Positions 4,869 through 27,460 of a stretch of DNA of 64,000 nucleotides are shown here, in pieces (the stretch's first letter is position 1; each line of letters starts with the position of its first letter). Position numbers and translations under genes: made by a program. The stretch is from a bacterium (GTDB taxonomy: Bacteria; JAAXHH01): the NCBI GenBank assembly GCA_965240335.1, contig CBDEKM010000008.1:311072-375071 (forward strand), given 5' to 3'. Under the pieces are notes generated by a model, which was not told where the DNA came from, ran no database searches, and saw only the letters and a program-made list of their open reading frames with translations.

Positions 4869-5498
4869 ATGTCGAAGCAACGCCTGCACATATTCGCAGT
4901 TTCGCTGTGCTTCACCGCCGCACTGGCCTTCGCCTGCGCCGACGACGAAGGCAGCCCCACAGGGCCCACGGATCCCACCGATCCCACGGATCCCACCGAT
5001 CCCACGGGACCGGGAGAGGAAGAACTCATTACGACCATCGTGATCACCCTGACTCCGACTACCGGGGGAGCGCCAATCATCGCACGGTTCGCTGATCTGG
5101 ATGGCGAGGGAGGCAACCCGCCGGAGGTCGACGAGATCACGGTGTCCAAGAATACCACGTACGACGGTAGTATTGAGGTACTCGACGAATCCGTAACACC
5201 GGCGGAGGACATCACCGAAGAAGTGAAGGAAGAGGCGGAGAATCACCAGTTCTTCTACGAACCCCAGGGCGGCATATCGGACGCGGTCATCACCTACCGG
5301 GACATGGAATCCGACTACGGAACCAACATTGGCGCCGATCATCCCGTCGGGGTGAATTTCCGCATCGAGATTCTTCAGGCCGCCACGGCCGGCAAGTTAA
5401 GGGTAACCCTCAGCCACTACGACGAGCGGCCGAAGGACGGTCAGAATCCGAGCGATGAAACGGATATAGACGTGACGTTCGACGTGATCGTTGAGTAA
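4869..5498 (+). CDS. Lipoprotein with (PTD)5 linker, unknown function, co-operonic with TonB-dependent receptor
   Basis: Signal peptide plus lipobox-like LAFAC|ADD. 9-bp tandem repeat encodes PTDPTDPTDPTDPT. Acidic beta-rich C-terminal domain. Stop overlaps the receptor start. Confidence 0.6.
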   Translation: MSKQRLHIFAVSLCFTAALAFACADDEGSPTGPTDPTDPTDPTDPTGPGEEELITTIVITLTPTTGGAPIIARFADLDGEGGNPPEVDEITVSKNTTYDGSIEVLDESVTPAEDITEEVKEEAENHQFFYEPQGGISDAVITYRDMESDYGTNIGADHPVGVNFRIEILQAATAGKLRVTLSHYDERPKDGQNPSDETDIDVTFDVIVE

Positions 5499-7821
5499 GT
5501 TCACATTGCTGGCGATACTACTGGCATTCGCGGGGCCGGTCCATGGGGCCACGGTTACCGGCAAGGTACTGAACGAGGAAAGCGTTCCACTGCCGTCGGT
5601 GACCGTCCTCCTGTCAGCCCTGGAGATCGGAACATTCACCGGCGATAACGGGCTGTTTACCCTGGAAAACGTACCCCCGGGGAGACACGGGATCGAATTC
5701 CGGTTCGTAGGGTACCGAACGATCACGACCGAAGTCATCGTTTCCGAATTTCGGCCAACCGTGCTCGAAGTAAGAATGGAACCGGAACCCCTCGTCGGCG
5801 AAGAGGTCGTCGTGACCGGTGAACGGAACCTGGCGGGTGAACTCACCGGCTCGAGCCAGTCCGTTCTCGTGCTGCCGCCGTCGGCCCTGGAGGAAAGACG
5901 GGGCCAGACGCTGGGGGAGACCCTGGAATCCTTGCCCGGCGTATCCGCGCTGACCACGGGACCGGCCGTATCGAAACCCGTGCTGCGCGGGGTCCACAGT
6001 GCCCGCGTGCTGGTGCTCAACGCCGGGGTTGCGCAGGAGGGCCAGCAGTGGGGTGGTGACCACGCCCCGGAGATCGATCCCTTTTCACCGGCCAGAATCG
6101 AGGTGCTCAAAGGCGCTGCGGGCGTACAGTACGGCGTTGGCGCCATCGGCGGTGTCATTCGCATCGAACCGCCCGAACTGCCCGAGAACCCCGGAATCGG
6201 CGGCAGGATCAACACGAATATGTTTTCCAATAATCGCCAGGGGGCCGGTTCCGCCCTCGTGCAGGGCGCGTTTCGCCGTCTCCGGGGGCTCAAATGGCGC
6301 GTGCAGGGCAGCCTCCGGCGTGCGGGGGACGCCCGCGCGCCTTCCCACGTCATCCGGAATACCGGGTTCGACGAGCGGAACTATTCCGCCGCCCTGGGCC
6401 TGACGACGGACTGGATGGACACCGAAGCCTATTTCAGCCATTTCGGTACGTGGATCGGTATCTTCAAGGGTTCCCACATCGGCAACACCACGGACCTCGA
6501 ACGAACGATCGCCCGGGGCGACCCGGACATCGTGGGGTCCTTTACCTACGACATCGACAATCCGCGGCAGCGGGTGGATCACGATCTGCTTTCACTCCGA
6601 TCCAGGATAGGATTGAAAGGCACAGGCAACCTGGAATTGCGTTACGGCCAGCAGTACAACCGGAGGGAGGAGTGGGACTCCCACACCCGGGGAGGCGGCA
6701 CGCCGGCCAGGCCCGGGTTCGCCCAGGGTCTGCAGACCCACAGCGGCGATATGATCTACCATCATCCAAATCTGGGACGGTGGTACGGCAAGATCGGCGT
6801 CAGCGGCATGCGCCAACGCAACAGGCGATTCAGCACGGGGTTCCTGATCCCCGATTTCCTGGCCTATAATCTTGGCGTATTCGCCCTGGAATCCTGGACG
6901 AACGGGAAGGTTACGTTGGAAACGGGCGCCAGGTACGATTACCGCTGGATGGAAATCTACCCGAATGAAAGCACACGGGCCTCCGAGCGTGTCGTGGGCC
7001 GAACGCATACATACAGCAACGTGACCGGCGTCGTGGGGCTGATCTACCAGTTGTCGCCGACCCTGGCCGCCGCCGCGAACGTGGGCCGGGCGTGGCGCCC
7101 GCCCGGGGTGAACGAGCTTTACAGCCACGGCGTACACCACGGGACGGCGCAGTTCGAGGTAGGCGATACGGATCTGGAGACCGAGTCGAGCGTGAACACG
7201 GACCTTACCCTGCGGTACCAGGGTGAGCACGGCCGTGGTGAATTAGGGTTTTTCAGGTCGCAGTACGACAACTACATTTCACTGCTGCCGGCGGACGATC
7301 TCGTATTGACAATCCGCGGCGCGTTTCCTAAATTCACCTACATACAAACCAATGCCGTAATACAGGGTGTGGACGGCTACCTCGAGTACGATCTCGCGCG
7401 GTACCTGGACGTATACCTGTCCGCGTCCCTCGTCCGGGGTCGAGACACCTCGAAAGACCGTCCCCTTTACCAGATGCCGTCTACCCGGCTGATTGCCGGG
7501 CTGGATTTCCACCTGCCCACCGCGGGGCGTCTGCTCGAAGCGGGTGTCGGATTCGAAGGCCGCTTCGTTATGCGGCAGAACAGTTTTCCCAGGGACATCG
7601 ACTACGTGGATCCCCCGGGCGGTTACAGCCTCTTCGATGTCCACATGCACGGGGAGTTCGCCGTGGCCGACCAACCGGTGCGGATGCAGTTCGGGGTTCA
7701 CAACCTGTTCAATAACCGGTACCGTGACTACCTGAGCCGGTTCCGGTATTTCATAGACAATCCAGGACGGAATGTCACGTTCAGCCTGTCCGTTCCCTTC
7801 GGGCAGCCGATGGAGGACTAA
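5491..7821 (+). CDS. TonB-dependent outer-membrane receptor with N-terminal carboxypeptidase-regulatory-like domain
   Basis: 776 aa. Signal peptide, CarbopepD_reg-like fold (TGKVLNEE...LPSVTVLL), plug region (EEVVVTGER), 22-strand-barrel-like body, terminal aromatic ...SLSVPF. TTG start overlapping the upstream gene. Confidence 0.85.
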   Translation: MSKFTLLAILLAFAGPVHGATVTGKVLNEESVPLPSVTVLLSALEIGTFTGDNGLFTLENVPPGRHGIEFRFVGYRTITTEVIVSEFRPTVLEVRMEPEPLVGEEVVVTGERNLAGELTGSSQSVLVLPPSALEERRGQTLGETLESLPGVSALTTGPAVSKPVLRGVHSARVLVLNAGVAQEGQQWGGDHAPEIDPFSPARIEVLKGAAGVQYGVGAIGGVIRIEPPELPENPGIGGRINTNMFSNNRQGAGSALVQGAFRRLRGLKWRVQGSLRRAGDARAPSHVIRNTGFDERNYSAALGLTTDWMDTEAYFSHFGTWIGIFKGSHIGNTTDLERTIARGDPDIVGSFTYDIDNPRQRVDHDLLSLRSRIGLKGTGNLELRYGQQYNRREEWDSHTRGGGTPARPGFAQGLQTHSGDMIYHHPNLGRWYGKIGVSGMRQRNRRFSTGFLIPDFLAYNLGVFALESWTNGKVTLETGARYDYRWMEIYPNESTRASERVVGRTHTYSNVTGVVGLIYQLSPTLAAAANVGRAWRPPGVNELYSHGVHHGTAQFEVGDTDLETESSVNTDLTLRYQGEHGRGELGFFRSQYDNYISLLPADDLVLTIRGAFPKFTYIQTNAVIQGVDGYLEYDLARYLDVYLSASLVRGRDTSKDRPLYQMPSTRLIAGLDFHLPTAGRLLEAGVGFEGRFVMRQNSFPRDIDYVDPPGGYSLFDVHMHGEFAVADQPVRMQFGVHNLFNNRYRDYLSRFRYFIDNPGRNVTFSLSVPFGQPMED

Positions 7822-7826
7822 ACATA

Positions 7827-10091
7827 ATGTATAGTTGTCGCGTGATTCTGCGCGTCGTAGCCGCATGCTGTGTCACGGCTTTGCTGGCCGGCATGGCTGG
7901 CGGCACCGCTTCGGCGCAGGATCGGGAACTGGTCCCCCTGCGCATTCTGGAATCGCTGCACATGGACGGGGTGCTGGACGAGGATATTTGGCAGAACGCC
8001 CTGGCGGCCTCCGGTTTCACCCAGCAGCGTCCCGACGAGGGACAGCCGGCGTCCGAGCGGACGGAGGTGCGGGTCCTGTACAACGAACAGACCCTGTACA
8101 TCGGTTTGTGGGCCTACGATTCGGACCCCGCCCAGATCATCGCCACCCAGATGGCCCGGGACGGCGACCTGGCCGACGATGATTACTTCCAGGTCATCCT
8201 GGATACCTACCTGGACCGTCAGAACGGCATTCTCTTCGCCACCAACCCCGACGGCGCCCGCTACGATGCCCAGGTGCGTAACGAAGGCCGGTCCGAGGGC
8301 CGCTTCAATACCAACGTCCTGACGGACTGGAACGGCGTATGGGACGTGTACACCTCCCGGAACGAAGCGGGGTGGTACGCCGAGATGGCCATCCCCTGGA
8401 GCACGCTGCGATTCGAAGCCGGCGATGACGTGGACTTCGGGTTGAACCTGGAGCGCCAGGTCCGCCGCCGCAACGAGCAGTCCTTCTGGGCGCCGGTCAT
8501 CCGGCCCTTCAGCATATCCCAGGTGTCGGTGGCCGGGACCCTGTCGGGCATGAACCTTACGAAACACGCCCACCGCTACCTTCAGATCACGCCCTATTCC
8601 CTGGGCGGCGCCACGTGGACTTTCCAACCCGGCACGACCAAGCGGGACGATGATTTTGACGGCGGGGTGGACGTCAAGTACGGACTGTCCCAGAACCTGT
8701 CCCTCGACCTGACCTATAACACCGATTTCTCCCAGGTTGAAGTGGACGACGCGCAGGTCAACCTCACCCAGTTCAACCTGTTTTTCCCGGAAAAGCGCTC
8801 CTTCTTCCTGGAGAACGCCGGCCTGTTTCGCTTCGGCGTGGCCCGGGAGACGGAATTGTTCTACAGCCGCAACATCGGTCTGGCGCGCGATGGGTCCGGA
8901 ACGCTGAGACAGGTGCCGATTACCGGCGGCGGCCGTATGACGGGCAAGGCCGGGAGAACCAATCTCGGCCTGCTGCTCATGCGCACCGGCGACCAGCAAT
9001 TCGGCGACTTCAAGATCGACAACAACATCTATGCCGTGGCGCGATTAAGCCGGGACGTGGGCGAGAAATCGAATATCGGCCTCATTATGACCAACCAGCG
9101 GATCGGCGGTGGCGATTACAACCAGGCGGGCGGCGCCGATTTAAACCTGGCGATCGGTCCGAAGCTGGCCGTCAGCGGTTTCCTGGCCGGGACCAGGTAC
9201 CAGGAAGGCGAGAACAGCGAATCGGGTTTCGCGGGACGGCTTTGGTCGCGGTGGAACGGTCCGCTGTGGCAGTTCGAGGGGCTCTACATGGGCGTGTCCG
9301 AGTTCTTCAATCCCGGCATGGGTTTCTTCAGCCGACGGAGCCTGGCCCGGAATTTCGGCGGATTTCACGAGGTTTCCGCCCGCGCGTTTTTTACCCCCGA
9401 ACCCGACAACAGTATCGTTCGGAGGTATTTCCCCCACATCGTGCTGGGCGCGACTTTCGGAGACGACGGCACGCAGCTGACCCGAAGGGAACACTACCAT
9501 TTCGAGACTGTTCTTCACGGGGGGTGAACAGGCGGGGATCACCCTGGACCGCGCCTTCCGGCGAATCAGCGAGGACACGCGGCCCATCCTGGGCGTCAAG
9601 CTTCCCGCGGGCAACTACACGGACGCGTCTTCGCGCATGCATTTCACGACGAACCTGAGCAAACCCCTGTCCGCCGACTTTCGAACTCATTCGTGGGCCA
9701 GTACATAAACGGCGACCGGCGCTCGCTGAGTCTCGGGGGCGGATTACGCACCGGTTCGAAGTTCACGATCGGTCCCCGGTACGAGTTGAACGACGTGACG
9801 CTCACCGACGCCGGCCAATATGAAGCGGGAGGTCACCGCCCATCATCTTCGGGGTCAGGACGAGCTATTCCTTCTCGCCGGACCTGTCGCTCCGCGCGCT
9901 GGTGCAGTGGGACACCCAGCAGGACCGGTTCGTTTCGAACTTCCGGTTCAACTATATCATCAACCCCGGGAGCAACCTCTTCGTCGTGTACAACGAGACG
10001 GCGGGACAACGGGGAGATGACGGACACCCTGCTCGGCGATCCGCTGGACCGTACCCTGGTGGTCAAGCTGGCCTACCTGTTCGACCTGTAG
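7827..10091 (+). pseudogene. DUF5916 / CBM9-like outer-membrane protein gene, disrupted by at least 4 frameshifts in its last 600 bp
   Basis: Intact for 566 codons (7827-9527). The protein then continues in frame +1 after a G6 run at 9519-9524 (QAGITLDRAFRRISEDTRPILGVKLPAGNYTDASS...), back in frame 0 (GQYINGDRRSLSLGGGLRTGSKFTIGPRYELNDVTLTDAGQYEAGG), frame +2 (VQWDTQQDRFVSNFRFNYIINPGSNLFVVYNETAGQRGDDG), and frame 0 again (EMTDTLLGDPLDRTLVVKLAYLFDL*). Each segment is clearly protein-like. Confidence 0.55.
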
Positions 10092-16067: not shown

Positions 16068-16715
16068 ATGTTGAAAACCGGATTTTCTCTCATGGTCGCT
16101 ATAGTCCTCGCGGCATCCCCGGCGCTCGCCGGTTCGCCGTCGGTTACCGGCGATTACGTGGAAGTACGCTCCAACCACATCCTCGGCGGCGGCTGTACCT
16201 ACTCGGCCGAGGCGGGGGGCGATGCCAACCAGGCCGTGGTGGCATGGCGCATCCGTGAAGGCGCGTTGGCCGATCTGGCCGTCGTCGCCGTCATACACGG
16301 AGAAGGCAACCTGCAACTCGGCCATCACGCCCGCGAAACCGTGTTGCTGATCGACAGCCGGGCCACGCCGACACAGCGGCAAGCCCTGAAAAGCACCTTC
16401 ACGGCCCGGTACGGTGATCTTTTCGGCACGGTAAAGACGGTGAAGCCAACCGAAATTTCCTTCCGCCACGATGGCGGTGATGCTTTCGCCGTTTCGGTGG
16501 ATGGCCACGTTCGCGTTTCTACCCGAACCATGCTGGCGACCGACCACGAGCCCAACTGCGACCGCATGGTCTGGTACGATCCCTTTACCCGTGACGCTTC
16601 GGCCACGCTGGTCCAGACCGCCGCCCACGCGTACAGCGGTTCGGACCTGATCGCGACGTGGAGCATACCGAACAAGCGCAGCGCATACGTGGGGACCTTC
16701 GCCTTTACGCCGTAA
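16068..16715 (+). CDS. Secreted hypothetical protein (DUF1326-like, tentative)
   Basis: 215 aa, signal peptide (LAASPALAGS), GDYVEVRS...GGGC motif. Co-directional with the downstream DMT transporter. Confidence 0.4.
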   Translation: MLKTGFSLMVAIVLAASPALAGSPSVTGDYVEVRSNHILGGGCTYSAEAGGDANQAVVAWRIREGALADLAVVAVIHGEGNLQLGHHARETVLLIDSRATPTQRQALKSTFTARYGDLFGTVKTVKPTEISFRHDGGDAFAVSVDGHVRVSTRTMLATDHEPNCDRMVWYDPFTRDASATLVQTAAHAYSGSDLIATWSIPNKRSAYVGTFAFTP

Positions 16716-16754: not shown

Positions 16755-17591
16755 TTGCTGATCACGGCGACGGTTGTGACGTCGTGCTTCGGCCTGATAC
16801 TGAAATCTGCCCACCAAAACGGCCGTAACCCCCTGGCGGTGGGCAGCCTGAACTACGCCGCCGGCGCCCTGTTCTCCGGCCTGTTGATGCTTACCGATTC
16901 GGGTTGGGTCTGGCACGGGACCACCGTGTTGATCGGCGCGGCCAGCGGGGTCTGCTACTTCGTCGCCTTCTACTTTCTGATCCAGGCCCTCCTGCAAGGT
17001 GGGGTCGCCGTGACCCTGGCGATCGTCCGCCTGTCCGTCCTGATTCCCATCCTCTGTTCGATCGTCATCTGGTATGAGATCCCCAATCTACAGCAAATTG
17101 CGGGCATCGCCACCGTCTGCGTCGCATTGCCGCTCCTGACGCTAGGCCTGGGCAGGCAAACCAACCTGTCGCTGCGCGGCGTCGCATGGCTGGTCAGCGC
17201 CCTCTTCGTCACGACGGGATTCTGCCATCTATCCCCCAAAGTCTTCAGCGAACTCGCACCCCAGAGCCAGATGTCGCTCTACCTGTTCTCACTCTTCGCC
17301 GTATCCGGTGTAATGGGACTGTGCTATATCTGGTACAAGCCGATCCGCGCGAGCTTGCCCGACGTGCGGTGGAGCTTTCTGCTGGGCGCGTGCAACGTCG
17401 TGGGAACCTGGCTTCTCGTCCTCACGCTCAAGTTTCTACCGGGCACCATTGTCTTTCCCTTCGTCAGCTCGGTCGGCCTTGTCATCACCACGCTCGTAGC
17501 TATATTGTACTGGAAAGAACAGGTGCGCAGGCTCGCTTACGTCGGCATCGGCCTGACCCTGGTCGCGGTCGTCCTGGTCAACAGCGGTTGA
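16755..17591 (+). CDS. EamA/DMT superfamily transporter (10 TM)
   Basis: 278 aa, 10 hydrophobic segments in two 5-TM halves. TTG start. Confidence 0.6.
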   Translation: MLITATVVTSCFGLILKSAHQNGRNPLAVGSLNYAAGALFSGLLMLTDSGWVWHGTTVLIGAASGVCYFVAFYFLIQALLQGGVAVTLAIVRLSVLIPILCSIVIWYEIPNLQQIAGIATVCVALPLLTLGLGRQTNLSLRGVAWLVSALFVTTGFCHLSPKVFSELAPQSQMSLYLFSLFAVSGVMGLCYIWYKPIRASLPDVRWSFLLGACNVVGTWLLVLTLKFLPGTIVFPFVSSVGLVITTLVAILYWKEQVRRLAYVGIGLTLVAVVLVNSG

Positions 17592-17665
17592 GACCTGTTT
17601 ACGATCCGCCATATACTGTTCCTTCCGTCCAGTGGACGTTCGTGCAACCAGCGAGGTAGTATATC

Positions 17666-19351
17666 GTGCTAAAGGAGACTGATCCGACCCGGCGAGTCGT
17701 AGGCGTCGGAAGCAACGTCATGGACGTGATCTACCGGGTGAACCGGATCGCGGGACCTGAGGAAAAAACCTATATCGTGCCGGACGAAGCAGGCGAGGTC
17801 GTGACCGAGGTGGTGGGTGGCGCGACGCTGAACCACCTGGCATGGACGGCTCTTCTGGGCGTCCCGGCCGGTCTCTTCGGTTTCCAGGGCGACGACCGGT
17901 ATGGAACGATGATCCGGGACGAGATGGACCGCCATGGAATCGACCGATCGGCCATCCGGGTTCGTGAGGGTTGCCCTTCCTCCTTTTCGGTTATCAATGT
18001 GGCGGACGACGCGGAACGGGCGATCTACATGGCCCGTGCATTGACGGCGGAGACCACGGCCACGGACGTGGAAACGCATTTCGCCGATTACATACGTACC
18101 GCCGCCATGGTGACGACCGAGATATCCCAGCTCCCGCTGGAAACCGTCATTGCCGTGCTGCGCATCGCCCGCGAGGCCGGCATTCTCACCGTACTGGACG
18201 TGGATGTCCCACCGGATTTCGCCATCGATGTGGCGGGGCTCGGTTCCGTGGACGATTTCGATACGGCCCTGCACCTGGCCGACATCGTCAAACCCGCCAA
18301 GGCCGCCGCGCAGCAGATGGTGGAAGCCGACAGTTCAGAAGCACGGGCCGAGGCCATTTTCGAACGGTATGGTGCCCGGTTGGTGGCCGTCACGGAAGGC
18401 GCGCAAGGCGCGGTTGTCACCGATGGGAACCAGACGACACGCACACCGGCGAAACCGGTCAGCGCCCGGGATACGACGGGTGCCGGAGACGCCTTTCTGG
18501 GTGGGCTGATCGCGGGGCTCTACCACGAACTCTCACTGCGGGATACCGCCAATCTGGCCAACGCCTGCGGCGCCGTATGTTGTCGCATCCCAGGGGCTTT
18601 CCCCCATCTCGGTGCGAGTCGCGATGAAGTGTTTGCGCTTTACGAAGGCGATCCGGTCCCGGGTCAAAACGTACCGGAAGCCGTTGCCGGAACGATGCCG
18701 GTGTCCGTGGAAACCGGCCGGGACGGTTCGAAGGTATCGACCGCTGGAGCAATCGGATTGAACGCCGTACGGAGGACCGCCGAAGCACTGGCACAACTGC
18801 ACGAAGGCCTGACAGACACCTACTTCGACGATACCATTTCGATCATACGAAAAGCGGAAGCATCGGGCGGGCGCGTACACGTCACCGGCGTGGGGAAATC
18901 CCGCCATATCGGCCTCAAGTTGGCAGCCACGCTAAAGAGTACGGGAACGAAGGCGTATTTCCTCGATCCGGCCGACTGCAACCACGGCGACAGTGGCCAG
19001 GTGGCGGAGGGAGACGTGGTCGTCGCCCTGTCCCACAGCGGGGAGACGGACGAACTCATGGCTGCCGTGCGTACCCTCGCGGCAAACGGCGCGACGCTCA
19101 TCGCGATCACCGGGAACGCTTCATCCAGCCTGGCCCGTTCGAGCGCGGCGACCCTGCACGTACCCGCGGACGGCGAGGCCGGACCCCTGGGTCTCGCGCC
19201 GACCGTGAGCACTTCCTGTCAATTGGCCGTGGCCGACGGTCTGGCTATGGCCCTGAAGGCCGACCGCGGGTTTACCCGGGAAGACTTTGCCCGGTACCAT
19301 CCCGGCGGCAGCATCGGAAAGAAACTGAAGGATAAGGAAGGAATGCCATGA
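17666..19351 (+). CDS. Fusion protein: PfkB-family carbohydrate kinase (N) + SIS-domain sugar-phosphate isomerase (C, KdsD/GutQ-like)
   Basis: N-terminal ribokinase-like fold with the DTTGAGDAF anion hole. C-terminal 180 aa matches the arabinose-5-phosphate isomerase SIS domain (GRVHVTGVGKSRHIGLKLAATLKSTGT...ALSHSGET...GLAPTVSTS...YHPGGSIGKKL) and lacks CBS domains. Confidence 0.7.
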   Translation: MLKETDPTRRVVGVGSNVMDVIYRVNRIAGPEEKTYIVPDEAGEVVTEVVGGATLNHLAWTALLGVPAGLFGFQGDDRYGTMIRDEMDRHGIDRSAIRVREGCPSSFSVINVADDAERAIYMARALTAETTATDVETHFADYIRTAAMVTTEISQLPLETVIAVLRIAREAGILTVLDVDVPPDFAIDVAGLGSVDDFDTALHLADIVKPAKAAAQQMVEADSSEARAEAIFERYGARLVAVTEGAQGAVVTDGNQTTRTPAKPVSARDTTGAGDAFLGGLIAGLYHELSLRDTANLANACGAVCCRIPGAFPHLGASRDEVFALYEGDPVPGQNVPEAVAGTMPVSVETGRDGSKVSTAGAIGLNAVRRTAEALAQLHEGLTDTYFDDTISIIRKAEASGGRVHVTGVGKSRHIGLKLAATLKSTGTKAYFLDPADCNHGDSGQVAEGDVVVALSHSGETDELMAAVRTLAANGATLIAITGNASSSLARSSAATLHVPADGEAGPLGLAPTVSTSCQLAVADGLAMALKADRGFTREDFARYHPGGSIGKKLKDKEGMP

Positions 19352-20256
19352 CGGTCGACACACCAGTGACCAACATCGAAACACCTGTAATCAAGCTGAT
19401 CGCCTTCGACCAGGACGACACGGCCCTGCTGCCAGACGGGAAACCCTCTCAAGAGGGGCTGCGCGCCATAGAAGCCGCACTGGACCGCGGGTTGATCGTG
19501 AGCTCAGTGAGCGGCCGGAACATCGACCGCAGCATCGAACCCTTCAGCAATGAACGCCCGCTGTTCGACCGGCTCTATCTGATTGCCAACAACGGTGGAA
19601 TCATACTCGGGCCGGTACACCAGGGTCAAAGGCCCTTGTTGTTCGAGAAGCGCATGCAGCGGAGCACTTTCCTGGACCTGCTTGATTTCATCGATGAGAA
19701 CGGTTTCAACTTCGTTTACAGCTGGCTGCGCGTAACGGAGACCGGCCCCCTGGACAGCGTGATCGCCAATCGGCATACCCCGTCTATTGCATCCATTGAG
19801 GAGCAGAGCCGCGCCGCCGTCGACTGTGACGACGACCTCCTGGCGAAACTGAGACAGGGCGACTACCCACCGCCGCCCAAGATGCTGATTCTGCCAGGTC
19901 TGGAAAGGCGGGAAGCGGTCCTGGCGGAACTGAAAGCCCGTTTCGATTCGCGCCTTTATCTCGTCAAAACGAACCCGGATCGCATCGAAGCCATGCATGC
20001 CGACGTCAATAAGAAAGTCGCCGTCGAGTTCATCGCCCGCGAACACGGGATATCCATGGATCACGTGATGGCGGTCGGGGACGGCGACAACGATCTGCCC
20101 ATGCTCTTCAACGCGGGCCTCGGCGTGATCATGGAAAACGCCCAGGACGCCGTCAAGGAGGCGGGCAGGGCGCAGGGCCTGGTCATTGCCCCGCCGAACC
20201 ACGAGAACGGCTTTGCCTGGGCGATTCGTCGATACGCGCTCAACGACGGCCATTGA
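19348..20256 (+). CDS. HAD-IIB (Cof-like) sugar-phosphate phosphatase
   Basis: 302 aa. Motif I FDQDDT, motif IV GDGDNDLPM. Start overlaps the stop of the kinase-SIS gene by 4 nt. Confidence 0.75.
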   Translation: MTVDTPVTNIETPVIKLIAFDQDDTALLPDGKPSQEGLRAIEAALDRGLIVSSVSGRNIDRSIEPFSNERPLFDRLYLIANNGGIILGPVHQGQRPLLFEKRMQRSTFLDLLDFIDENGFNFVYSWLRVTETGPLDSVIANRHTPSIASIEEQSRAAVDCDDDLLAKLRQGDYPPPPKMLILPGLERREAVLAELKARFDSRLYLVKTNPDRIEAMHADVNKKVAVEFIAREHGISMDHVMAVGDGDNDLPMLFNAGLGVIMENAQDAVKEAGRAQGLVIAPPNHENGFAWAIRRYALNDGH

Positions 20257-22130
20257 ACGGTTTTCCCCTCATGAGCCCATCCCTCCTCGATCATCTCCGG
20301 TCTTCCATGCTGGTGGCGGATGGCGCCATCGGAACCATGCTGTACGCCCGCGGTGTGCCGATGGAAGTCTGCTTCGACGAGATCAATCAAAGCCAGCCCG
20401 ACCTGGTCCGCCGGATCCACGAGGATTACGTGGACGCGGGCGCCGGGTTGATTGAAACAAATACCTTTGGCGCCAATGCCCTGTCGCTGTCCAAGTACAA
20501 CCTGGAGTTACAGACGGAAGTGTTGAACGCCCGGGGTGTCGAGATCGCACGGCAGGCGGCGGGGTCCCGGGCTTTCGTGGCGGGTGCCGTGGGGCCGGCG
20601 CGCGGTCTCCCCCAACAGGAATATACCGATACCGACTACGCGCGGGCCTATCGGGAGCAGATCACGGCCCTGGCAAATGGCGGGACGGACGCGGTTATCA
20701 TGGAGACTTTTCTCAGGCTCGATGAGCTCAAAGGGGCGCTGGAGATCTGCAAGGAAGTCTGCGACCTGCCGGTGATCTGTCAACTCGCGGTGGACCAGTA
20801 CGGCCAGACCGACGACGGGTTCGGAGTAGCGGAGGCTTTCGTTCAACTACGAGCGGGTGGCGCCGATGTAGTAGGGGTCAACTGCCGAAGCGGTCCCAAG
20901 GGCCTGCTGGACGCACTCGCTCCTGTCCCCCTTGCCGAAGGGCTGATGCTCTCCGCCTTCCCAAACGCCGGTTCCCCCGTCTACGTGGACGGGCGCTTCA
21001 TCTACGAGGCGACACCGGAGTACTTCGCAACGAGCGCCCTGCGTCTGAGGGACCAGGGCGTGCGGCTGATCGGTGGATGCTGTGGGACGATGCCTGAGCA
21101 CGTTCGGGCCATGGCCCGGGTGCTCGAAGGCAGTGAAATCGTAACGCGCAAGAAGGTCGTCCCGGTAGAAGTCCGGGTCGCGCCACGACCGGCCCGGCTG
21201 GTTCCCTCGCCTCCGGCGGTCGAACCGACGATCGTGGATCTGGTCAAAAAACGGGTGACTGTCATCGTCGAACTCGATCCGCCGCGGGACCTGGATCACG
21301 AACCCATCGTTCGTGGCGCCAGGGCCCTGAAGTCGGCGGGCGCCGACGCCCTTACCATGGCCGACAACTCCCTGGCCGTAACGCGGATCAGCAACATGGC
21401 CGTGGGGCAGATCGTCAAGGAGCAGGCCGGTATTCGCCCGCTGTTGCACATCGCCTGCCGGGACCGGAATCTGGCAAGCCTGCAGTCCCAGGTGCTCGGC
21501 ATGCACGCACTGGGCATCGATCACGTCCTCGCCGTCACGGGCGATCCCGTGAAATTCGGCGATCAGCCGGGGGCGAGCAACGTTTACGACGTTTCATCAT
21601 TCGAATTGATCCGGTTGATCAAGCAGATGAACGAGGGGGTGGGTTTTTCGGGTCGACCCCTGAACGGAAACACCGGTTTTATCGTCGCGGCGGCGTTCGA
21701 TCCCAACGGACCCAACCTGGAAAGAAGGATCAGGAGACTGGAAAGGAAGGTCGAGGCTGGCGCCGACATGATTATGACGCAGCCCCTCTTCGACCGCAGG
21801 CAGGCCAAAGAACTCTTCACGGCGACCCGGGATTCCGGCGTTCCCATATTTCCGGGCGTCATGCCCCTGGTCAGCGACGGCAACACGGAGTTCCTTCACA
21901 ACGAGGTGCCCGGATTCGTAGTTACCGACGAAGTTCGTGCACGCATGGCCCGGGCAGGCCGTGGACGAAAAGCCCGGAAAGAGGGCATCGCGATCGCGCG
22001 GGAGATCATCGAATCTGTCCTGACGTACTTCAACGGCCTCTACCTGATCACACCGTTCAACCGTTATCCCATGACGGTTGAACTGACGGAGTTTGCCCTG
22101 AAGACGACGTCTCGCGAGGAGACTGGATAG
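20253..22130 (+). CDS. Bifunctional homocysteine S-methyltransferase / 5,10-methylenetetrahydrofolate reductase
   Basis: 625 aa. N-terminal Hcy-MT (zinc site GGCCGT). C-terminal MetF-like TIM barrel (VELDPPR...HIACRDRN...MTQPLFD). A later ATG at 20271 is an alternative start. Confidence 0.8.
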   Translation: MNGFPLMSPSLLDHLRSSMLVADGAIGTMLYARGVPMEVCFDEINQSQPDLVRRIHEDYVDAGAGLIETNTFGANALSLSKYNLELQTEVLNARGVEIARQAAGSRAFVAGAVGPARGLPQQEYTDTDYARAYREQITALANGGTDAVIMETFLRLDELKGALEICKEVCDLPVICQLAVDQYGQTDDGFGVAEAFVQLRAGGADVVGVNCRSGPKGLLDALAPVPLAEGLMLSAFPNAGSPVYVDGRFIYEATPEYFATSALRLRDQGVRLIGGCCGTMPEHVRAMARVLEGSEIVTRKKVVPVEVRVAPRPARLVPSPPAVEPTIVDLVKKRVTVIVELDPPRDLDHEPIVRGARALKSAGADALTMADNSLAVTRISNMAVGQIVKEQAGIRPLLHIACRDRNLASLQSQVLGMHALGIDHVLAVTGDPVKFGDQPGASNVYDVSSFELIRLIKQMNEGVGFSGRPLNGNTGFIVAAAFDPNGPNLERRIRRLERKVEAGADMIMTQPLFDRRQAKELFTATRDSGVPIFPGVMPLVSDGNTEFLHNEVPGFVVTDEVRARMARAGRGRKARKEGIAIAREIIESVLTYFNGLYLITPFNRYPMTVELTEFALKTTSREETG

Positions 22131-22172: not shown

Positions 22173-22670
22173 CTATCCAGCATATAGCAGGCTTGCGATG
22201 ATCGAGCCGGCAATCACGAGCATCATTATCATCAGTTTGTTGGCCGCCGATGTCACGCTTTGCGCTATTTTAAGATCCTGTGAGGATATCTTTTCTTCAA
22301 GGAGATCGAATCGGCCTTCGTTCCCGGTAACCCATACCACCATATCTTTTTTTAAGGCCATGAATCTGCCTTCGAACTTGGCGTCCAGCGTCGCGATCTT
22401 TTCTACGACAGCCTCGAATCGTCTATCGTTCCTGGCATCCAGCGTCGCGATCTTTTCTCCCATGGCCGTTATCTTTTCTTCGACAGCTTCGAATCGGCTG
22501 TCGTTCCTGGCATCCAGCGTCGCGATCTTTTCTCCCATGGCCGTTATCTTTTCCTCGACAGCCTCGAATCTTACACCTAGCACGTCCTCCAGTGAATGAA
22601 AGGCGGAGTTCACGTCTGCCACCGTTGCATAGACCTCGCTGGGCGATTCCTTAACCTTGCTCTCTTCCAT
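22173..22670 (-). CDS. Tail-anchored coiled-coil repeat protein (C-terminal TM), unknown function
   Basis: 165 aa. Contains an exact tandem duplication RFEAVEEKITAMGEKIATLDARND x2 plus degenerate copies. C-terminal LMIMMLVIAGSIIASLLYAG. Lower GC than flanks. Confidence 0.5.
   Translation of the reverse strand: MEESKVKESPSEVYATVADVNSAFHSLEDVLGVRFEAVEEKITAMGEKIATLDARNDSRFEAVEEKITAMGEKIATLDARNDRRFEAVVEKIATLDAKFEGRFMALKKDMVVWVTGNEGRFDLLEEKISSQDLKIAQSVTSAANKLMIMMLVIAGSIIASLLYAG
22380..22580 (-). repeat. 72-bp near-perfect tandem duplication (about 2.7 units) inside the tail-anchored repeat gene
   Basis: Plus-strand units beginning GGCATCCAGCGTCGCGATCTTTTCTCCCATGGCCGTTATCTTTTC... at about 22434 and 22509, preceded by a shorter degenerate copy. 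Confidence 0.7.
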
Positions 22671-24702: not shown

Positions 24703-24840
24703 GGTATCGCATACTAAGCACGCTATGGGGTATGTGTCAAGTTCGTCCCACAGGCAGTTCCTTTTGTACACGCCGCGACAGGTTCGCTGCCAGTGCTGCG
24801 CCAGGTTCGCAGGCAACGCGCAGGACCACGGTTGGCATCG

Positions 24841-24869
24841 TTGACACGACCAGGGCAGCCGCCTATATT
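24841..24869 (+). promoter_or_regulatory. Near-consensus sigma70 promoter TTGACA-17-TATATT
   Basis: TTGACA at 24841-24846, 17-nt spacer, TATATT at 24864-24869. Lies 49 nt upstream of the oxidoreductase start. Confidence 0.45.
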
Positions 24870-24917
24870 CCGTTATTCGATTTACCAATCCAAACCGAAT
24901 ACAGGGAGGAGTACTTG

Positions 24918-26006
24918 ATGTCCACGGTCTATCGTGTCGGCATTATTGGCTGCGGCAGCATCTCGAATCTACACATGCAGGGATACCTCGGCGAACCCCG
25001 GTTCAAGGTCGTCGCGCTTGCGGACCCGGTGCCCGGAGCCAGGCAGGATTTCGGCGATCGCTACGGGATCGAAAATCGCTACGCCGACGTCCGCGAGATG
25101 ATGGACGAGGAGCACCTGGACGTTGTCAGCATCTGTACCTGGCACAAGCTGCACGCCCCCATGACCATCGCCGCCTGTGCACGCCGCCCGAAGGCCATCC
25201 TCTGCGAAAAGCCCATGGCCATCAACATGGGCGAATGTGACGAGATGATGATCGCCGCCCGGCGGAATGACGTCAAACTTGCCATCGCTCACCAGCGGCG
25301 GTTCAACCCGGTGTGGACCGACGCCCGAAACCTGATCGCGGAAGGGGCGATCGGCGCGGTGCGCCACGTGACGTGCAGCGGGAGCCAGGGCTTGCTCAAC
25401 GACTGTTCCCACATGTTCGATTTCATGCGTTACGTCCTGGGTGACCCGGCGCCCGAGTGGGTAATCGGGAACATTGAACGTAAGACGGACCGATACGAGC
25501 GGGACATCCGGATCGAGGACCGCAGCGCGGGCATCGTCGGATTCGACAACGGCGCCGTGGGCATGCTCCTCCAGGAGCTGCATCCCGAGCGTCGCCAGGG
25601 CGGGTACGTTTACGGTACGGACGGCATGATGGACATAAACGAGCAGCGGGTACTCCTCATCAACTCGAAAACCGGAGGATGGGAAGAGCGGCCGTCCACG
25701 GGCGAGGACCCGAGCGTGGGCCAGGCCGTGGAATTGGCGGACTGGATTGAAGGCAAGTCCGGCCACCGCGGCGAGGCCTCCAACGGCCGGGCCGCCGTGG
25801 AGATCATCATGGGAATCTACGAGTCGGCGCGGCTCCACGAAGTCGTGCAGATGCCCGTACGTACCCACAGTTCTCCCATCGAAGAAATGATCGAAAGCGG
25901 CGACCTGCCCGTGGAACGCCCCGGCCGTTACGATATCCGGGCTTTCCTGCTGCGCGGAGAGTCCATGCAGGGTGAAATGCCAGGCGAAACAGATGAAGAA
26001 GGCTGA
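24918..26006 (+). CDS. Gfo/Idh/MocA family NAD(P)-dependent oxidoreductase
   Basis: Start at ATG 24918 with AGGGAGGAG SD. GIIGCGSISNLH Rossmann motif, EKP motif (LCEKPMA). Confidence 0.8.
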   Translation: MSTVYRVGIIGCGSISNLHMQGYLGEPRFKVVALADPVPGARQDFGDRYGIENRYADVREMMDEEHLDVVSICTWHKLHAPMTIAACARRPKAILCEKPMAINMGECDEMMIAARRNDVKLAIAHQRRFNPVWTDARNLIAEGAIGAVRHVTCSGSQGLLNDCSHMFDFMRYVLGDPAPEWVIGNIERKTDRYERDIRIEDRSAGIVGFDNGAVGMLLQELHPERRQGGYVYGTDGMMDINEQRVLLINSKTGGWEERPSTGEDPSVGQAVELADWIEGKSGHRGEASNGRAAVEIIMGIYESARLHEVVQMPVRTHSSPIEEMIESGDLPVERPGRYDIRAFLLRGESMQGEMPGETDEEG

Positions 26007-27027
26007 CCGCGCGGAAATCGGCCGGACGGGGTTGAAGATCAGTCGCCTGGGACTCGGCGGAGCCCCGTTGGCCGGCCTGTACCGGGGCGTTTCCGACGAG
26101 CAGTCCGCCCAGGTCGTAAATACCTATCTCGATCACGGCCTGGGCTTCTTCGACACGGCACCACTTTATGGCAGCGGCGTGAGCGAGACCCGTCTGGGCG
26201 CCGTACTGTCAGGGCACAGTCGCGACCGCGGAATCGACCTTGACAGCGACCTTGACCGCGGCATTGACCGCGATTCCTTCGTGCTCGCTACGTAGGTTGG
26301 CCGCCTCCTGGTGCCCGATCCGGCACGAGACCAGGACGTCTGGTCCGAAGATCTCCCACCCATCGGGCCGGTTTTCGACTACAGCTACGACGGCACGCTG
26401 CGATCCCTGGAGGAAAGTCTCGCGCGTCTGGGCCTGGATCGCGTGGATATCCTGCACATCCACGATCCGGACAACCACTACGACGAGGCGATGAAGGGCA
26501 GTTACAGGGCCCTGGTCCGACTTCGCGACGAAGGCGTGATCCGCGCCGTGGGCGCCGGTATGAACCAGGCGAAGATGCTCTCCCGTTTCGCCCAAGAGGG
26601 CGATTTTGATTGCTTCCTGTGTGCGGGCCGTTACACCCTGGTGGACCATAATGCATTAAAACAACTACTGCCCCTTTGCGTCGAACGAAATATCAGCCTC
26701 ATCATCGGCGGTCCCTACAACAGCGGCATCCTGGCCCAGGGCGCTGTGGAAGGCGCGAAATTCGATTACCGGAAGGCGCCGTCGCAGATCGTGGAAAAAG
26801 TTCGCCAAATTGAAGCGGTATGCGGCCGCCACGGCACGCCCCTCAAGGCAGCGGCGCTGCAGTTTCCCCTGGCCCATCCCGCGGTGGCCGCCGTCATTCC
26901 TGGCGCCCGTTCCTCGGAGGAAGTGAACGAAAACGTAAAGATGTTCGAGTTCGTGATTCCCGCGGACTTCTGGGCCGAACTGCGGGAGGAGGGACTGGTT
27001 CCCGACAAGGCGCCGACGCCGGCGTGA
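25993..27027 (+). pseudogene. Aldo/keto reductase gene interrupted by an in-frame TAG exactly at the catalytic-lysine codon, preceded by a 42-nt in-frame insertion of imperfect tandem repeats
   Basis: Same reading frame before and after the stop. ...SGHSRD[RGIDLDSDLDRGID]RDSFVLAT* (TAG 26293-26295) VGRLLVPD... The canonical AKR motif is RDxxVIATK. Downstream part carries IPGARS and the rest of the fold. Confidence 0.6.
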
Positions 27028-27127
27028 CGGGTCGCGGCTGGCGCTGAAGGTCGTCCCATTCCGGAAGCCGGGGCCGTCTCCTGCGGTCGCCCGCATCTCA
27101 ACAGCAATACTCGCAAGGAGTCCACAT

Positions 27128-27460
27128 ATGAGCAACCCCCAACGCTACGGCATGGTCCTGAAGGTCAAGCCGGAACGGCTCGAGGAATACAAGGAATACC
27201 ACAAGGAAATCTGGCCTGGCGTGGCAAAAATGATCACGGAGTGCAACATCACGAATTACTCCATCTACCTGAAGGACGGTTACCTCTTTTCCTATTTTGA
27301 ATACGTCGGTGATGACTTCAAGGCGGACATGGACAAAATGGCCGGCGATCCGGTCACACAGCAATGGTGGGACGTGATGATGCCCATGCAGGATCCCCTA
27401 CCGACCCGGAAAGAGGGCGAGTGGTGGGCGGAGATGGAGGAAGTCTTCCACCAGGATTGA
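27128..27460 (+). CDS. rhaM: L-rhamnose mutarotase
   Basis: 110 aa. MVLKVKPERLEEYKEYHKEIWPGV...YSIYLKDGYLFSYFEY, characteristic of RhaM. Confidence 0.8.
   Translation: MSNPQRYGMVLKVKPERLEEYKEYHKEIWPGVAKMITECNITNYSIYLKDGYLFSYFEYVGDDFKADMDKMAGDPVTQQWWDVMMPMQDPLPTRKEGEWWAEMEEVFHQD

Follow-up and report, generated by a model that had tools for sequence, protein, structure and literature searches.

The locus studied here encodes a single 561-residue protein in which a PfkB-family sugar kinase is joined to a SIS isomerase domain of predicted arabinose-5-phosphate isomerase (API) type. The fusion is real and widely conserved, not an artefact. Our preferred but tentative reading is that it salvages or breaks down a free pentose, probably D-arabinose, in two steps; the sugar would be phosphorylated by one domain and isomerized by the other on its way into central metabolism.

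A conserved kinase–isomerase fusion

The fusion gene lies in a 64-kb stretch of bacterial DNA, called the window here, between a permease gene and a phosphatase gene on the same strand. The features of the locus are as follows.

16068..16715, + strand: DUF1326 protein with a signal-peptide-like N-terminus (Pfam DUF1326, 2.3e-11)
16755..17591, + strand: EamA/DMT-type membrane permease, 278 aa (Pfam EamA, 2.1e-9)
17588..17617, + strand: sigma-70-like promoter match, TTGAGA-18-TATACT, from the permease stop towards the fusion start
17666..19351, + strand: PfkB kinase/SIS isomerase fusion gene, 561 aa (open reading frame and domain models)
17693..18598, + strand: PfkB (ribokinase-like) domain, aa 10–311 (Pfam PfkB, E 1.3e-44)
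18668..18739, + strand: disordered interdomain linker, aa 335–358 (pLDDT < 50)
18776..19333, + strand: KpsF/GutQ-type SIS domain, aa 371–556, without a CBS pair (NCBIfam models)
19348..19351, + strand: ATGA stop/start overlap of the fusion and phosphatase genes (junction sequence)
19348..20256, + strand: Cof-type HAD-IIB phosphatase, ATG start, 302 aa (Pfam Hydrolase_3, E 1.2e-35)
20271..22130, + strand: YitJ-type bifunctional homocysteine S-methyltransferase/MTHFR (NF006396, 775 bits)

The fusion gene begins with GTG, preceded at 10 nt by GAGG, and its N-terminus agrees in length with those of aligned homologues. The sigma-70-like match is a weak candidate for its promoter, agreeing at 10 of 12 positions with a consensus that may not be the host's. 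At the junction with the phosphatase gene (GGA ATG CCA TGA), 5′ of which lies AAGGAAGGA, the ATG of the second gene falls within the end of the first, giving a 4-bp overlap. The stop of the fusion gene also overlaps the start of the phosphatase gene in each related locus whose junction was read, by 4 bp in L084, L085 and L086 and by 1 bp in L089, in agreement with the translational coupling proposed in the initial annotation, whose domain calls (PfkB and SIS in one polypeptide, followed by a Cof-type HAD protein) were likewise confirmed with Pfam and NCBIfam models. The YitJ-type gene, with a likely ATG at 20271, 14 nt 3′ of the phosphatase gene, is a neighbour with no known functional link to the fusion.

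A protein identical to the 561-residue fusion was already on record, on a 405-kb contig, and more than 120 full-length homologues share 46–80% identity with it. Homologues occur in several phyla, and 29 or more clusters, defined at 50% identity, can be aligned over both domains. A fusion without counterparts elsewhere would have told against the first description; instead, it is conserved across phyla. An AlphaFold model has two well-folded domains connected by the low-confidence linker, which differs in sequence and length between homologues (alignment columns ~330–395). A literature search found no paper on the PfkB–SIS architecture, so the gene itself stands as undescribed. The chemistry of a kinase followed by an isomerase, from D-arabinose through D-arabinose 5-phosphate (A5P) to D-ribulose 5-phosphate, reportedly dates from about 1960, and the earlier claim of an undescribed route is therefore sound for the gene and not for the reactions.

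Partner genes differ between clades

In clade A, to which the window belongs, the fusion is accompanied by the DMT permease and by a HAD phosphatase of its own. Each clade A locus has the permease gene directly 5′ of the fusion: tblastn places it there in L084–L087 and L089, with 55–88% identity, and the same holds for L098, L100, L101, L107, L122, L127, L145, L153 and L156. It is presumed to be the sugar transporter of the module. The DUF1326 gene sits 5′ of the permease in L084, L085, L086, L089, L100, L101, L145, L153 and L156, a conservation that may mirror shared ancestry alone, since the wider synteny is conserved too. The YitJ-type gene follows the phosphatase in six of the seven distinct clade A loci, the exception being L086/L087.

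The phosphatase passes the HAD-SF-IIB model TIGR01484 (56.6 against a cut-off of 41.8). On TIGR00099, the model for the Cof subfamily, its score of 109 (E 2.8e-31) misses the cut-off of 137, and it is thus a HAD-IIB, Cof-like enzyme without being a trusted Cof member. The original assignment to a Cof-like type in place of HAD-IIIA holds. HAD motifs I–IV are present (D21-x-D23-x-T25, S55-G-R, K221/K222 and GDGDND at 244–249), and among solved structures the enzyme comes closest to 3mpo, YidA and PfHAD1. Orthologues with at least 59% identity are confined to clade A lineages, the next matches falling to 36% and 33%, and in 19 of the 54 orthologue clusters the longest contig is exactly equal in size to that of a listed fusion cluster. 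Clades B, C and D carry the same fusion and lack this partner. We conclude that the phosphatase is a clade-A-specific, dedicated and co-inherited partner of the fusion.

Elsewhere the fusion keeps different company. In clade B, a gene of GH172, a family that also includes fructofuranosidases, lies 3′ of the fusion in L083, L088, L104 and L125, and GH127-like genes are near it in six or seven loci; fewer than half of the clade B loci show these links. Exo-alpha-D-arabinofuranosidases belong to GH172 (PMC10509167). In clade C, a Schiff-base aldolase of the DHDPS/NAL type (motifs GTTGE, LYDN and GIK) is encoded directly 5′ of the fusion in 10 of 10 loci, comprising all nine genome loci (Myxococcota, Binatus and Acidiferrales) and L151. 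The 895-residue protein P0267 carries aldolase, kinase and isomerase on one chain (37% identity, 2e-65). No sugar-releasing partner of either kind, aldolase or furanosidase, occurs in the window's clade. Judged by family, each of these partners would set free an aldose suited to a kinase coupled to an API, and these genes suggest that the fusion feeds free D-arabinose into central metabolism and does not contribute to nucleotide-sugar building.

The isomerase domain is of the API type

Pfam SIS matches the fusion at aa 403–528 (E 3.5e-25), and the KdsD, KpsF/GutQ and GutQ models match aa 371–556 at 1e-46 to 1e-48 (NCBIfam KdsD 2.1e-48, KpsF/GutQ 3.6e-48); AlsR, RpiR, HxlB and GlmS models reach only about 1e-11. 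The best solved matches are c3406 of E. coli CFT073 (5uqi, 8e-36), KdsD (2xhz, 2.6e-30) and the B. fragilis API (3etn, 8e-25), with no GmhA chain among the PDB matches listed and the regulatory protein MurR at only about 1e-5. The domain thus groups with catalytic APIs and not with regulatory SIS proteins, an outcome that would have gone against the initial annotation had it been reversed. Residues K411, H440, E463, E504 and H545 align with K59, H88, E111, E152 and H193 of E. coli KdsD, which we take to be its catalytic residues, and none of the five varies across a diverse set of 14 fusions with 45–80% identity. No characterised SIS enzyme of the KpsF/GutQ type is known to be anything other than an A5P isomerase. 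By sequence, then, the domain is a catalytic API-type isomerase.

Although the domain is 45–49% identical to annotated KdsD/KpsF proteins, it differs from KdsD, GutQ and KpsF in several respects. The match to the KdsD model is confined to the SIS part of the profile (positions 23–202 of 328). With its end at aa 561, 13 residues past the HPGG motif, the protein leaves no room for the tandem CBS domains, whose absence had been noted from the start. Its scores fall below the family cut-offs (164.5 against 203.7 for TIGR00393; 165 against 505 for KdsD), and the neighbourhoods examined contain no Kdo/LPS genes. The lack of CBS domains and the sub-cut-off scores exclude a KdsD orthologue. They do not exclude an API, as the proven single-domain APIs c3406 and B. 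fragilis API also lack CBS domains. These two proteins have the same residues as the fusion at the KdsD catalytic positions, and the structure of c3406 has A5P bound. In the c3406 gene cluster, which also encodes a PTS transporter together with an antiterminator, uptake, phosphorylation and isomerization are combined in a catabolic layout resembling that of the fusion, in which the isomerase forms the C-terminal half of the protein and the PfkB domain is predicted to phosphorylate in place of the PTS.

Could the fusion instead be a housekeeping source of Kdo precursor? The SIS domain would then be the cell's sole API, the HAD-IIB phosphatase would replace KdsC, and the kinase would top up pentose phosphates, for example from D-ribulose or D-arabinose. 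The likeness to KdsD with its full catalytic residue set, the diderm character of the host phyla and the absence of a second SIS gene from the 64-kb window and the related loci read would all fit, and a dedicated, co-inherited phosphatase suits a fixed biosynthetic step. We nevertheless find this improbable. Neither the window nor the 10 kb flanking related loci showed a kdsA, kdsB, KdsC, waaA or lpx gene; three clades have the fusion without the phosphatase, and degradative partners accompany it outside clade A; the other constant partner is a permease; and a closely related SIS gene is present in an actinomycete, an organism expected to make no Kdo.

A divergent ribokinase-like kinase

The kinase domain is a PfkB member (153 bits against a Pfam cut-off of 25.8), and Foldseek returns ribokinases as its best matches (target TM-score ~0.8). 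Its scores on family models include 112 bits for IolC, 110 for ribokinase and 94 for fructokinase, the ribokinase score lying far below the equivalog cut-off of TIGR02152 (299.65). It shares the fold of RbsK at 22–29% identity and retains the glycine pair G51-G52, D20, N56, E152 and the anion-hole motif DTTGAGD at 269–275 with the catalytic Asp275 of GAGD, all invariant in the fusion family and conserved with RbsK as GG, Asp20, Asn56, Glu152 and the GAGD Asp. It departs from RbsK in lacking the sugar-binding Lys43 and the NXXE motif, the site for Mg2+/phosphate. Where ribokinase has GGKGANQ, fusion kinases have GGxTLNHLAW (GGATLNHLAW in the window protein), and KPAKAAA at 209–215 aligns with ribokinase PNETEAE, a change kept across the subfamily. 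These losses suggest that the chemistry may differ from that of ribokinase; overall, the domain is most like kinases that act on a 5- or 6-hydroxyl of a sugar.

The likeness to ribokinase raises the prospect of ribose or nucleoside salvage, with a divergent ribokinase and a SIS domain acting on ribose 5-phosphate/ribulose 5-phosphate or sensing phosphosugars. Ribokinases are the closest solved structures as well as the top equivalog-type match, and two gene contexts favour ribose and count against the D-arabinose reading. First, the kinase belongs to a distinct subfamily that also holds kinase-only proteins (36–40% identity), whose genes lie between those of a nucleoside hydrolase and a DMT sugar transporter in five Acidiferrales loci. 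Second, Catelliglobosispora koreensis has a separate API-like SIS gene that overlaps the gene of a classical ribokinase, with RbsD and a LacI regulator close by. However, ribose 5-phosphate is already a central metabolite, which would make a fused isomerase needless, and A5P isomerization is the activity that we know for KpsF/GutQ-type enzymes. In fused kinases, moreover, the sugar-pocket signature reads GGVTLNHLAW where the nucleoside-hydrolase-linked ones have GGVTANNLTQ, a six-residue insertion is a further difference between the two, and the aldolase and furanosidase partners yield no ribose. We rank ribose salvage next, and it too seems doubtful.

The initial annotation had drawn on nucleotide-sugar logic, citing GmhA/HldE/GmhB for heptose and KdsD/KdsC for Kdo. 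Read in that way, the SIS domain would convert ribulose 5-phosphate to A5P, the PfkB domain would phosphorylate the anomeric position as HldE does, and the HAD enzyme would remove the 5-phosphate as GmhB does, giving D-arabinose 1-phosphate for NDP-D-arabinose. In a variant with the reaction order of eukaryotes, A5P made from ribulose 5-phosphate would be dephosphorylated to D-arabinose before a 1-kinase acts. The locus does hold the same three superfamilies (SIS, PfkB and HAD) in one operon with a dedicated phosphatase, the pairing of a kinase with a phosphatase is easier to explain if they act at different positions, and the eukaryotic D-arabinose route uses the same three activities, namely an isomerase, an A5P phosphatase that has yet to be identified, and a kinase (PMC11301363). 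Still, the analogy is not supported. The protein has no nucleotidyltransferase domain, and no nucleotidyltransferase or glycosyltransferase gene, and thus no adenylyltransferase counterpart, was found in the neighbourhoods examined in any clade, nor kdsA or kdsB; the SIS domain, with no GmhA among its listed matches, is not GmhA-type and the phosphatase is HAD-IIB, not IIIA; the kinase scores 54.8 bits on HldE domain I (rfaE domain I; cut-off 345), below ribokinase, IolC and fructokinase; and most fusion-bearing clades have no phosphatase, their partners being catabolic (aldolase, furanosidases and transporters). We regard the two orders, taken together, as quite unlikely.

A proposed route from D-arabinose and possibly from Kdo

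In the scheme that we infer, from the sugar and the order of reactions to the direction of transport and the substrate of the phosphatase, the DMT permease encoded just 5′ of the fusion would import the sugar, and the PfkB domain would use ATP to phosphorylate the primary 5-hydroxyl of D-arabinose, giving A5P. The SIS domain, of the CBS-less c3406/B. fragilis API type, would then convert A5P to D-ribulose 5-phosphate, which would enter the pentose phosphate pathway; A5P could alternatively supply Kdo synthesis. There is a rationale for joining the two enzymes: A5P, which strongly inhibits phosphoglucose isomerase, can be catabolized in no other way, so that its direct transfer to the fused isomerase would prevent build-up. 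Inhibition of the Trypanosoma brucei phosphoglucose isomerase by A5P has a Ki of 50 nM (PMC11301363), which offers a rationale for the fusion and for the phosphatase alike.

The proposed chemistry has a precedent in Propionibacterium pentosaceum, from which Volk is said to have purified a D-arabinokinase (EC 2.7.1.54, product A5P) and a phosphoarabinoisomerase (EC 5.3.1.13) in about 1960–62. The link to the fusion is one that we draw: those activities were reportedly separate and from a Gram-positive organism, whereas the fusion would hold both on one polypeptide in diderm phyla. We know of no gene or reference sequence assigned to D-arabinokinase. The assignment of that activity (EC 2.7.1.54) to the PfkB domain leans on gene context.

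The clade C loci hint at a further extension. Kdo aldolase splits Kdo into D-arabinose and pyruvate. In a 2007 survey this activity (EC 4.1.2.23) was an orphan. It is conceivable, though we consider it unlikely, that the fusion supplies both the missing D-arabinokinase gene and an API, and that the divergent NAL-type aldolase of Myxococcota, Binatia, Acidobacteriota and P0267 is the orphan Kdo aldolase gene. If so, this would be the first genetically assigned route for the breakdown of Kdo and D-arabinose, from Kdo to pyruvate and D-arabinose and on through A5P to ribulose 5-phosphate, acting on sugars that occur in lipopolysaccharide, in the arabinan of mycobacteria and in pectin RG-II. The window's clade would keep a reduced route of permease, kinase–isomerase and a dedicated phosphatase controlling A5P. 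The logic of the clade C gene pair and of P0267 would match that of sialic acid catabolism by NanA–NanK–NanE, in which the aldose set free by a NAL-family aldolase is phosphorylated by a kinase and the resulting sugar phosphate is turned into a central metabolite by a further enzyme. The differences are that the fusion kinase is PfkB and not ROK, that the last step is an isomerization and not an epimerization, that the presumed substrate is Kdo and not Neu5Ac, and that the window's clade lacks the aldolase.

The aldolase could also act after the kinase, in a semi-phosphorylative breakdown of 2-keto-3-deoxy acids: PfkB would phosphorylate the terminal hydroxyl of Kdo or a Kdo-like acid in the manner of KDG kinase, the aldolase would give pyruvate and A5P, and the SIS domain would form ribulose 5-phosphate. 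KDG kinases are PfkB proteins and give weak matches here, the aldolase adjoins the fusion throughout clade C and is fused to it in P0267, a separate fusion of ROK, two SIS domains and a KDPG-aldolase exists (KDPG-type aldolases act on phosphorylated acids), and the kinase lid region has an invariant Arg118; yet the window's clade has no aldolase, LDVDVP replaces the DxNxR arginine that we take to be a KDG kinase feature, and KDG kinase models score just 44–59 bits, far under ribokinase, so that this reading ranks with the nucleotide-sugar schemes as quite unlikely.

For D-arabinose salvage, the phosphatase is the least certain step. Simple catabolism does not account for an operon that pairs a kinase with a phosphatase of its own. 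The enzyme may be a clade-specific accessory sugar-phosphate phosphatase, most likely one that drains off excess A5P or some other pentose phosphate, in the manner of AraL, a HAD phosphatase of the Bacillus subtilis L-arabinose operon that is thought to prevent the build-up of phosphorylated intermediates. Both would be HAD enzymes encoded beside a kinase in a pentose catabolic operon, AraL being HAD-IIA and the window's enzyme HAD-IIB of the Cof type.

A kinase-isomerase fusion coupled to a phosphatase

The module examined here consists of two overlapping genes.

17666-19351, + strand: fusion of a PfkB kinase and a KpsF/GutQ-type SIS domain, 561 aa, GTG start with GAGG 10 nt upstream
19348-20256, + strand: Cof-type HAD-IIB phosphatase, 302 aa

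The initial annotation had placed both reading frames exactly, and profile matches and the gene junction bear out its description of a PfkB kinase joined to a SIS domain without CBS domains and translationally coupled to a Cof-like phosphatase. The junction reads ...GGA ATG CCA TGA, a 4-bp ATGA stop/start overlap preceded by a AAGGAAGGA stretch. Within the fusion, the PfkB domain spans aa 10-311 (Pfam 1.3e-44) and the SIS domain aa 403-528 (Pfam 3.5e-25). NCBIfam models for KdsD (2.1e-48), KpsF/GutQ (3.6e-48) and GutQ (1.7e-46) match the C-terminal part and are confined to its SIS portion (KdsD positions 23-202 of 328); as the protein ends 13 residues past the HPGG motif, it has no CBS domains. 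An AlphaFold model (mean pLDDT 80) features two well-folded domains and a low-confidence linker at aa 335-358, the region where homologues vary in length.

The fusion is conserved elsewhere, contrary to one of the doubts raised at the outset. An identical protein is on record (405-kb contig), and more than 120 full-length homologues with both domains share 46-80% identity, the few that are named coming from Gemmatimonadetes, Zixibacteria or Poribacteria. Going by the names of relatives at 76-79% identity and by shared synteny, the window probably stems from a member of Gemmatimonadota. Among 1.84 billion cluster representatives searched, 29 or more clusters at 50% identity align over both domains, down to about 30% identity. 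Together, these homologues and clusters rule out an assembly or frameshift artefact. Automatic annotation currently calls the fusions 'SIS domain-containing protein' or 'PfkB family carbohydrate kinase', and our literature search found nothing on a PfkB-SIS fusion, on a D-arabinose kinase/phosphoarabinoisomerase or on c3406 (see below) in connection with arabinose.

The two halves of the fusion

The SIS domain has its best solved relative in c3406 of E. coli CFT073, a CBS-less arabinose-5-phosphate isomerase (API; 5uqi, 8e-36), followed by the KdsD SIS domain (2xhz, 2.6e-30) and the Bacteroides fragilis API (3etn, 8e-25); no GmhA structure is among the PDB matches listed. It shares 45-49% identity with KdsD and KpsF/GutQ proteins annotated on plasmids and chromids. 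The residues that we take to be catalytic in E. coli KdsD, K59, H88, E111, E152 and H193, align with K411, H440, E463, E504 and H545 of the fusion, all invariant in an alignment of 14 fusions at 45-80% identity; 2xhz itself is the K59A mutant, visible in the alignment as GMGASGH. A regulatory SIS domain, the other doubt raised initially, was rejected, as RpiR/MurR-type models and structures match at only 1e-5 to 1e-11 (MurR itself at about 1e-5) versus 1e-36 to 1e-48 for APIs. The domain should thus be read as a predicted single-domain isomerase of D-arabinose 5-phosphate (A5P) and D-ribulose 5-phosphate (Ru5P). Being below the equivalog cut-offs and without CBS domains, it is no KdsD orthologue. 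A role of the fusion in Kdo housekeeping seems unlikely.

The nearest solved relative, c3406, is likewise encoded among genes for uptake and phosphorylation, beside a PTS transporter and an antiterminator.

NC_004431.1, 3249590-3254819, E. coli CFT073: PRD antiterminator, PTS EIIC, MalY/PatB-family protein, SIS isomerase (c3406), 2-hydroxyacid dehydrogenase

This cluster adjoins a T6SS island and contains no PfkB kinase, so phosphorylation is presumably supplied by the PTS.

The kinase half is ribokinase-like, both in sequence (22-29% identity) and in fold (Foldseek target TM-score about 0.8, uninformative on specificity). Invariant features are a GG dipeptide, D20, N56, E152 and a DTTGAGD anion hole, which contains the catalytic Asp275. 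Family models for IolC (112 bits), ribokinase (110), fructokinase (94), ribose-1-P kinase (87) and HldE domain I (55) all score far under their cut-offs and do not discriminate the substrate; a keto-deoxy-acid kinase is an improbable assignment. Two features set the subfamily apart: where ribokinase has GGKGANQ, with its sugar-binding lysine, the fusions have GG(A/V)TLNHL(A/S)W, and in place of the ribokinase NXXE metal/phosphate motif they have KPAKAAA. Fructosamine metabolism of the FrlD/FrlB kind was also considered and rejected, as FrlD reaches only 65 bits and the SIS domain is of the KpsF kind instead of a GlmS/FrlB-like double SIS.

A possible route from D-arabinose to ribulose 5-phosphate

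We tentatively favour a role of the fusion in salvage or catabolism, taking free D-arabinose through A5P to Ru5P. The predicted isomerase domain would anchor the chemistry at A5P/Ru5P, and the fused kinase would most simply make A5P from free D-arabinose, a sugar that is abundant in actinobacterial cell walls and, via Kdo, present in every Gram-negative outer membrane. We know of no catabolic exit for A5P other than this isomerase. A5P is a strong inhibitor of phosphoglucose isomerase (Ki 50 nM for the T. brucei enzyme; PMC11301363), which would give a reason for fusing kinase and isomerase.

The enzyme families are known, and probably the chemistry is too. Volk reportedly purified a D-arabinokinase (EC 2.7.1.54, product A5P) and a phosphoarabinoisomerase from Propionibacterium pentosaceum; to our knowledge, the kinase was never cloned and no gene has been assigned to it. 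If this account is right, the chemistry is old. The fusion, its dedicated HAD partner and its aldolase-linked variants are undescribed.

Neighbourhoods of the fusion

By identity and neighbours, the fusion loci fall into three main groups, which suggest different sources of the sugar. Clade A (at least 61% identity) comprises the window, L084, L085/L153, L086/L087/L122, L089, L127, L156 and partial loci. Its gene order is DUF1326, an EamA/DMT permease, the fusion and the HAD gene overlapping the fusion stop; the adjoining permease would be the sugar source. A Methyltransf_32 gene lies between permease and fusion in a subclade at 63-72% identity, and a further gene follows HAD in six of the seven distinct loci.

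20271-22130, + strand: YitJ-type bifunctional homocysteine S-methyltransferase/MTHFR, also in L084, L089, L127, L153 and L156

The YitJ-type and Methyltransf_32 neighbours form an unexplained link to SAM/methionine metabolism. No Rfam family, including SAM riboswitches, reaches threshold anywhere in the 64-kb window. Wider synteny is kept too (M28 peptidase, DUF6702, HupE, SufE, aldo-keto reductase), so part of the clade A order is simply common ancestry.

In clade B (about 46-52% identity to the window fusion, about 28 loci), the fusion is preceded by genes for a GlcD-like FAD oxidase, a GDSL hydrolase and an isocitrate-dehydrogenase-family enzyme, in that order. The dehydrogenase, upstream in 28 loci, was rejected as a functional partner; given gaps of 93-257 nt, its position was judged conserved synteny. 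A GH127-like gene is inserted upstream of the fusion in six or seven loci, and a GH172 gene lies downstream in four (L083, L088, L104 and L125). Members of GH172 include exo-alpha-D-arabinofuranosidases (PMC10509167), and such furanosidases would release D-arabinose from arabinans.

Clade C (40-43% identity) occurs in Myxococcota, Candidatus Binatus and Acidiferrales. In all nine genome loci and in one metagenome locus, the fusion starts within a few bases of the end of a divergent DHDPS/NAL-family gene.

L001-L009, about 6800-7990 (also in metagenome locus L151): DHDPS/NAL-family aldolase

Conserved in the aldolase are the GTTGE motif, the tyrosine of LYDN and, in the position of the Schiff-base lysine, the lysine of GIK(V)S. 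Protein P0267 unites all three domains in one 895-aa polypeptide, a DHDPS domain (2.4e-16) followed by PfkB and SIS; over its N-terminal part it shares 37% identity with the aldolase that adjoins the clade C fusions (2e-65). P0255 is similar, such aldolase-kinase-isomerase fusions measuring 861-895 aa; the genomic context of P0267 was uninformative. Kdo aldolase splits Kdo into D-arabinose and pyruvate, and its activity, EC 4.1.2.23, was listed as an orphan in a 2007 survey. The clade C enzyme is a candidate for this activity and, if Kdo is its substrate, could release D-arabinose, as a second kind of partner unrelated to the GH172 furanosidases. The order of aldolase, kinase and isomerase mirrors NanA, NanK and NanE of sialic acid catabolism. 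P0302 (1363 aa), in which a ROK kinase is joined with two API-like SIS domains and with a KDPG/KHG aldolase, is unrelated to the PfkB-type triple fusion; it is an independent case of kinase, isomerase and aldolase in one protein, with its kinase and aldolase drawn from other families.

Other relatives are less uniform. Poribacteria-type fusions (54-58% identity) have no constant partner. Kinase-only relatives in Acidiferrales have both subfamily features, minus the HL..W part of the signature, and are flanked by genes for a nucleoside hydrolase and a DMT sugar transporter, to which the window permease shows no significant similarity (E 0.019). Catelliglobosispora koreensis, an actinomycete that presumably makes no Kdo, yet has an A5P isomerase-like gene, encodes separate proteins.

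L016, 6449-9523: API-like SIS-only gene (7824-8603) overlapping by 4 bp a classical ribokinase gene (8600-9523)

RbsD and a LacI-type regulator lie near this pair, as does a very large ORF upstream (3255-6434, 1059 aa). A pairing of SIS and ribokinase beside RbsD, like the nucleoside hydrolases next to kinase-only genes, would suit ribose salvage, which we consider an improbable role for the fusion.

The dedicated phosphatase

HAD belongs to HAD-IIB of the Cof/YidA kind (Hydrolase_3 1.2e-35; TIGR01484 over its cut-off), has all four HAD motifs and has 3mpo, YidA and PfHAD1 as its closest relatives of solved structure. Orthologues at 59% identity or more are confined to clade A lineages, after which identity drops to 36% and 33%. 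In 19 of 54 clusters of orthologues, the longest contig is exactly as long as one of a listed fusion cluster. HAD is thus a dedicated, co-inherited partner of the fusion in clade A.

It is also the weak point of the salvage model, as encoding a kinase alongside a phosphatase in the same operon is wasteful, except where the phosphatase serves as a relief valve, where its substrate is another ester or where the pathway is biosynthetic. A relief-valve role has been proposed for AraL of Bacillus subtilis, and the same is conceivable for HAD. A biosynthetic role akin to heptose activation, in line with the nucleotide-sugar precursor logic of the initial annotation, is kept alive for clade A by the eukaryotic D-arabinose route, in which an isomerase is followed by an unidentified A5P phosphatase and then a kinase (PMC11301363). 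We nevertheless find it unlikely: no nucleotidyltransferase or glycosyltransferase is encoded close by in any of the loci, the kinase does not resemble HldE and the phosphatase is absent from most clades. What stands of the undescribed sugar-phosphate route originally suggested is an uncharacterised, coherent module; its nucleotide-sugar logic is not supported, and the evidence favours A5P salvage or catabolism.

If true, this reading would have several consequences. First, one conserved gene would give sequences to a kinase activity reportedly known since the 1960s, and the orphan Kdo aldolase would gain a candidate gene. Second, it would become clear how D-arabinose is recycled by common bacteria of soils, sediments and the sea (Gemmatimonadota, Zixibacteria, Myxococcota, Acidobacteriota and Poribacteria), and the automatic annotation of the fusions would be corrected. 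Finally, a compact kinase-isomerase would be available to make A5P, Ru5P or Kdo analogues enzymatically. Should the reading be wrong, what is left is a conserved module with a dedicated phosphatase, of ordinary interest only.

Other features of the window

22173-22670, - strand: 165-aa protein, largely 75-bp tandem repeats (22396-22592) with repeated RFEAVEEKITAMGEKIATLDARND units
24732-27460 and 33687-40055: sugar-oxidation-like cluster (GFO/IDH/MocA oxidoreductase, aldo-keto reductase (AKR), RhaM mutarotase, PhyH, SGL lactonase, amidohydrolase_2, two SDR/epimerases, lactonase)
25972-27027, + strand: AKR gene, orthologue of a 328-aa gene in L084
27464-33526, + strand: 2020-aa protein with many leucine-rich repeats and Big_2 domains, inside the sugar cluster
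45171-58121, + strand: 4316-aa ORF, its only Pfam match one Calx-beta domain, with a 336-bp tandem repeat (2.9 copies, 54051-55018)

The sugar-oxidation-like cluster directly follows the fusion-HAD pair in L086/L087 and is split in the window by YitJ, DUF2339 and the 2020-aa protein; by analogy, it may resemble non-phosphorylative deoxy-sugar routes. Its AKR gene has an in-frame TAG at 26293-26295, read FVLAT*VGR, at the position where we take the ...LATK(V)G motif of AKRs to have its catalytic lysine. The TAG could mark a pseudogene or a recoded codon, or it could be a sequencing error. Just upstream of it, a 12-bp tandem repeat (26235-26273) encodes DRGIDLDSDLDRGIDRDS.
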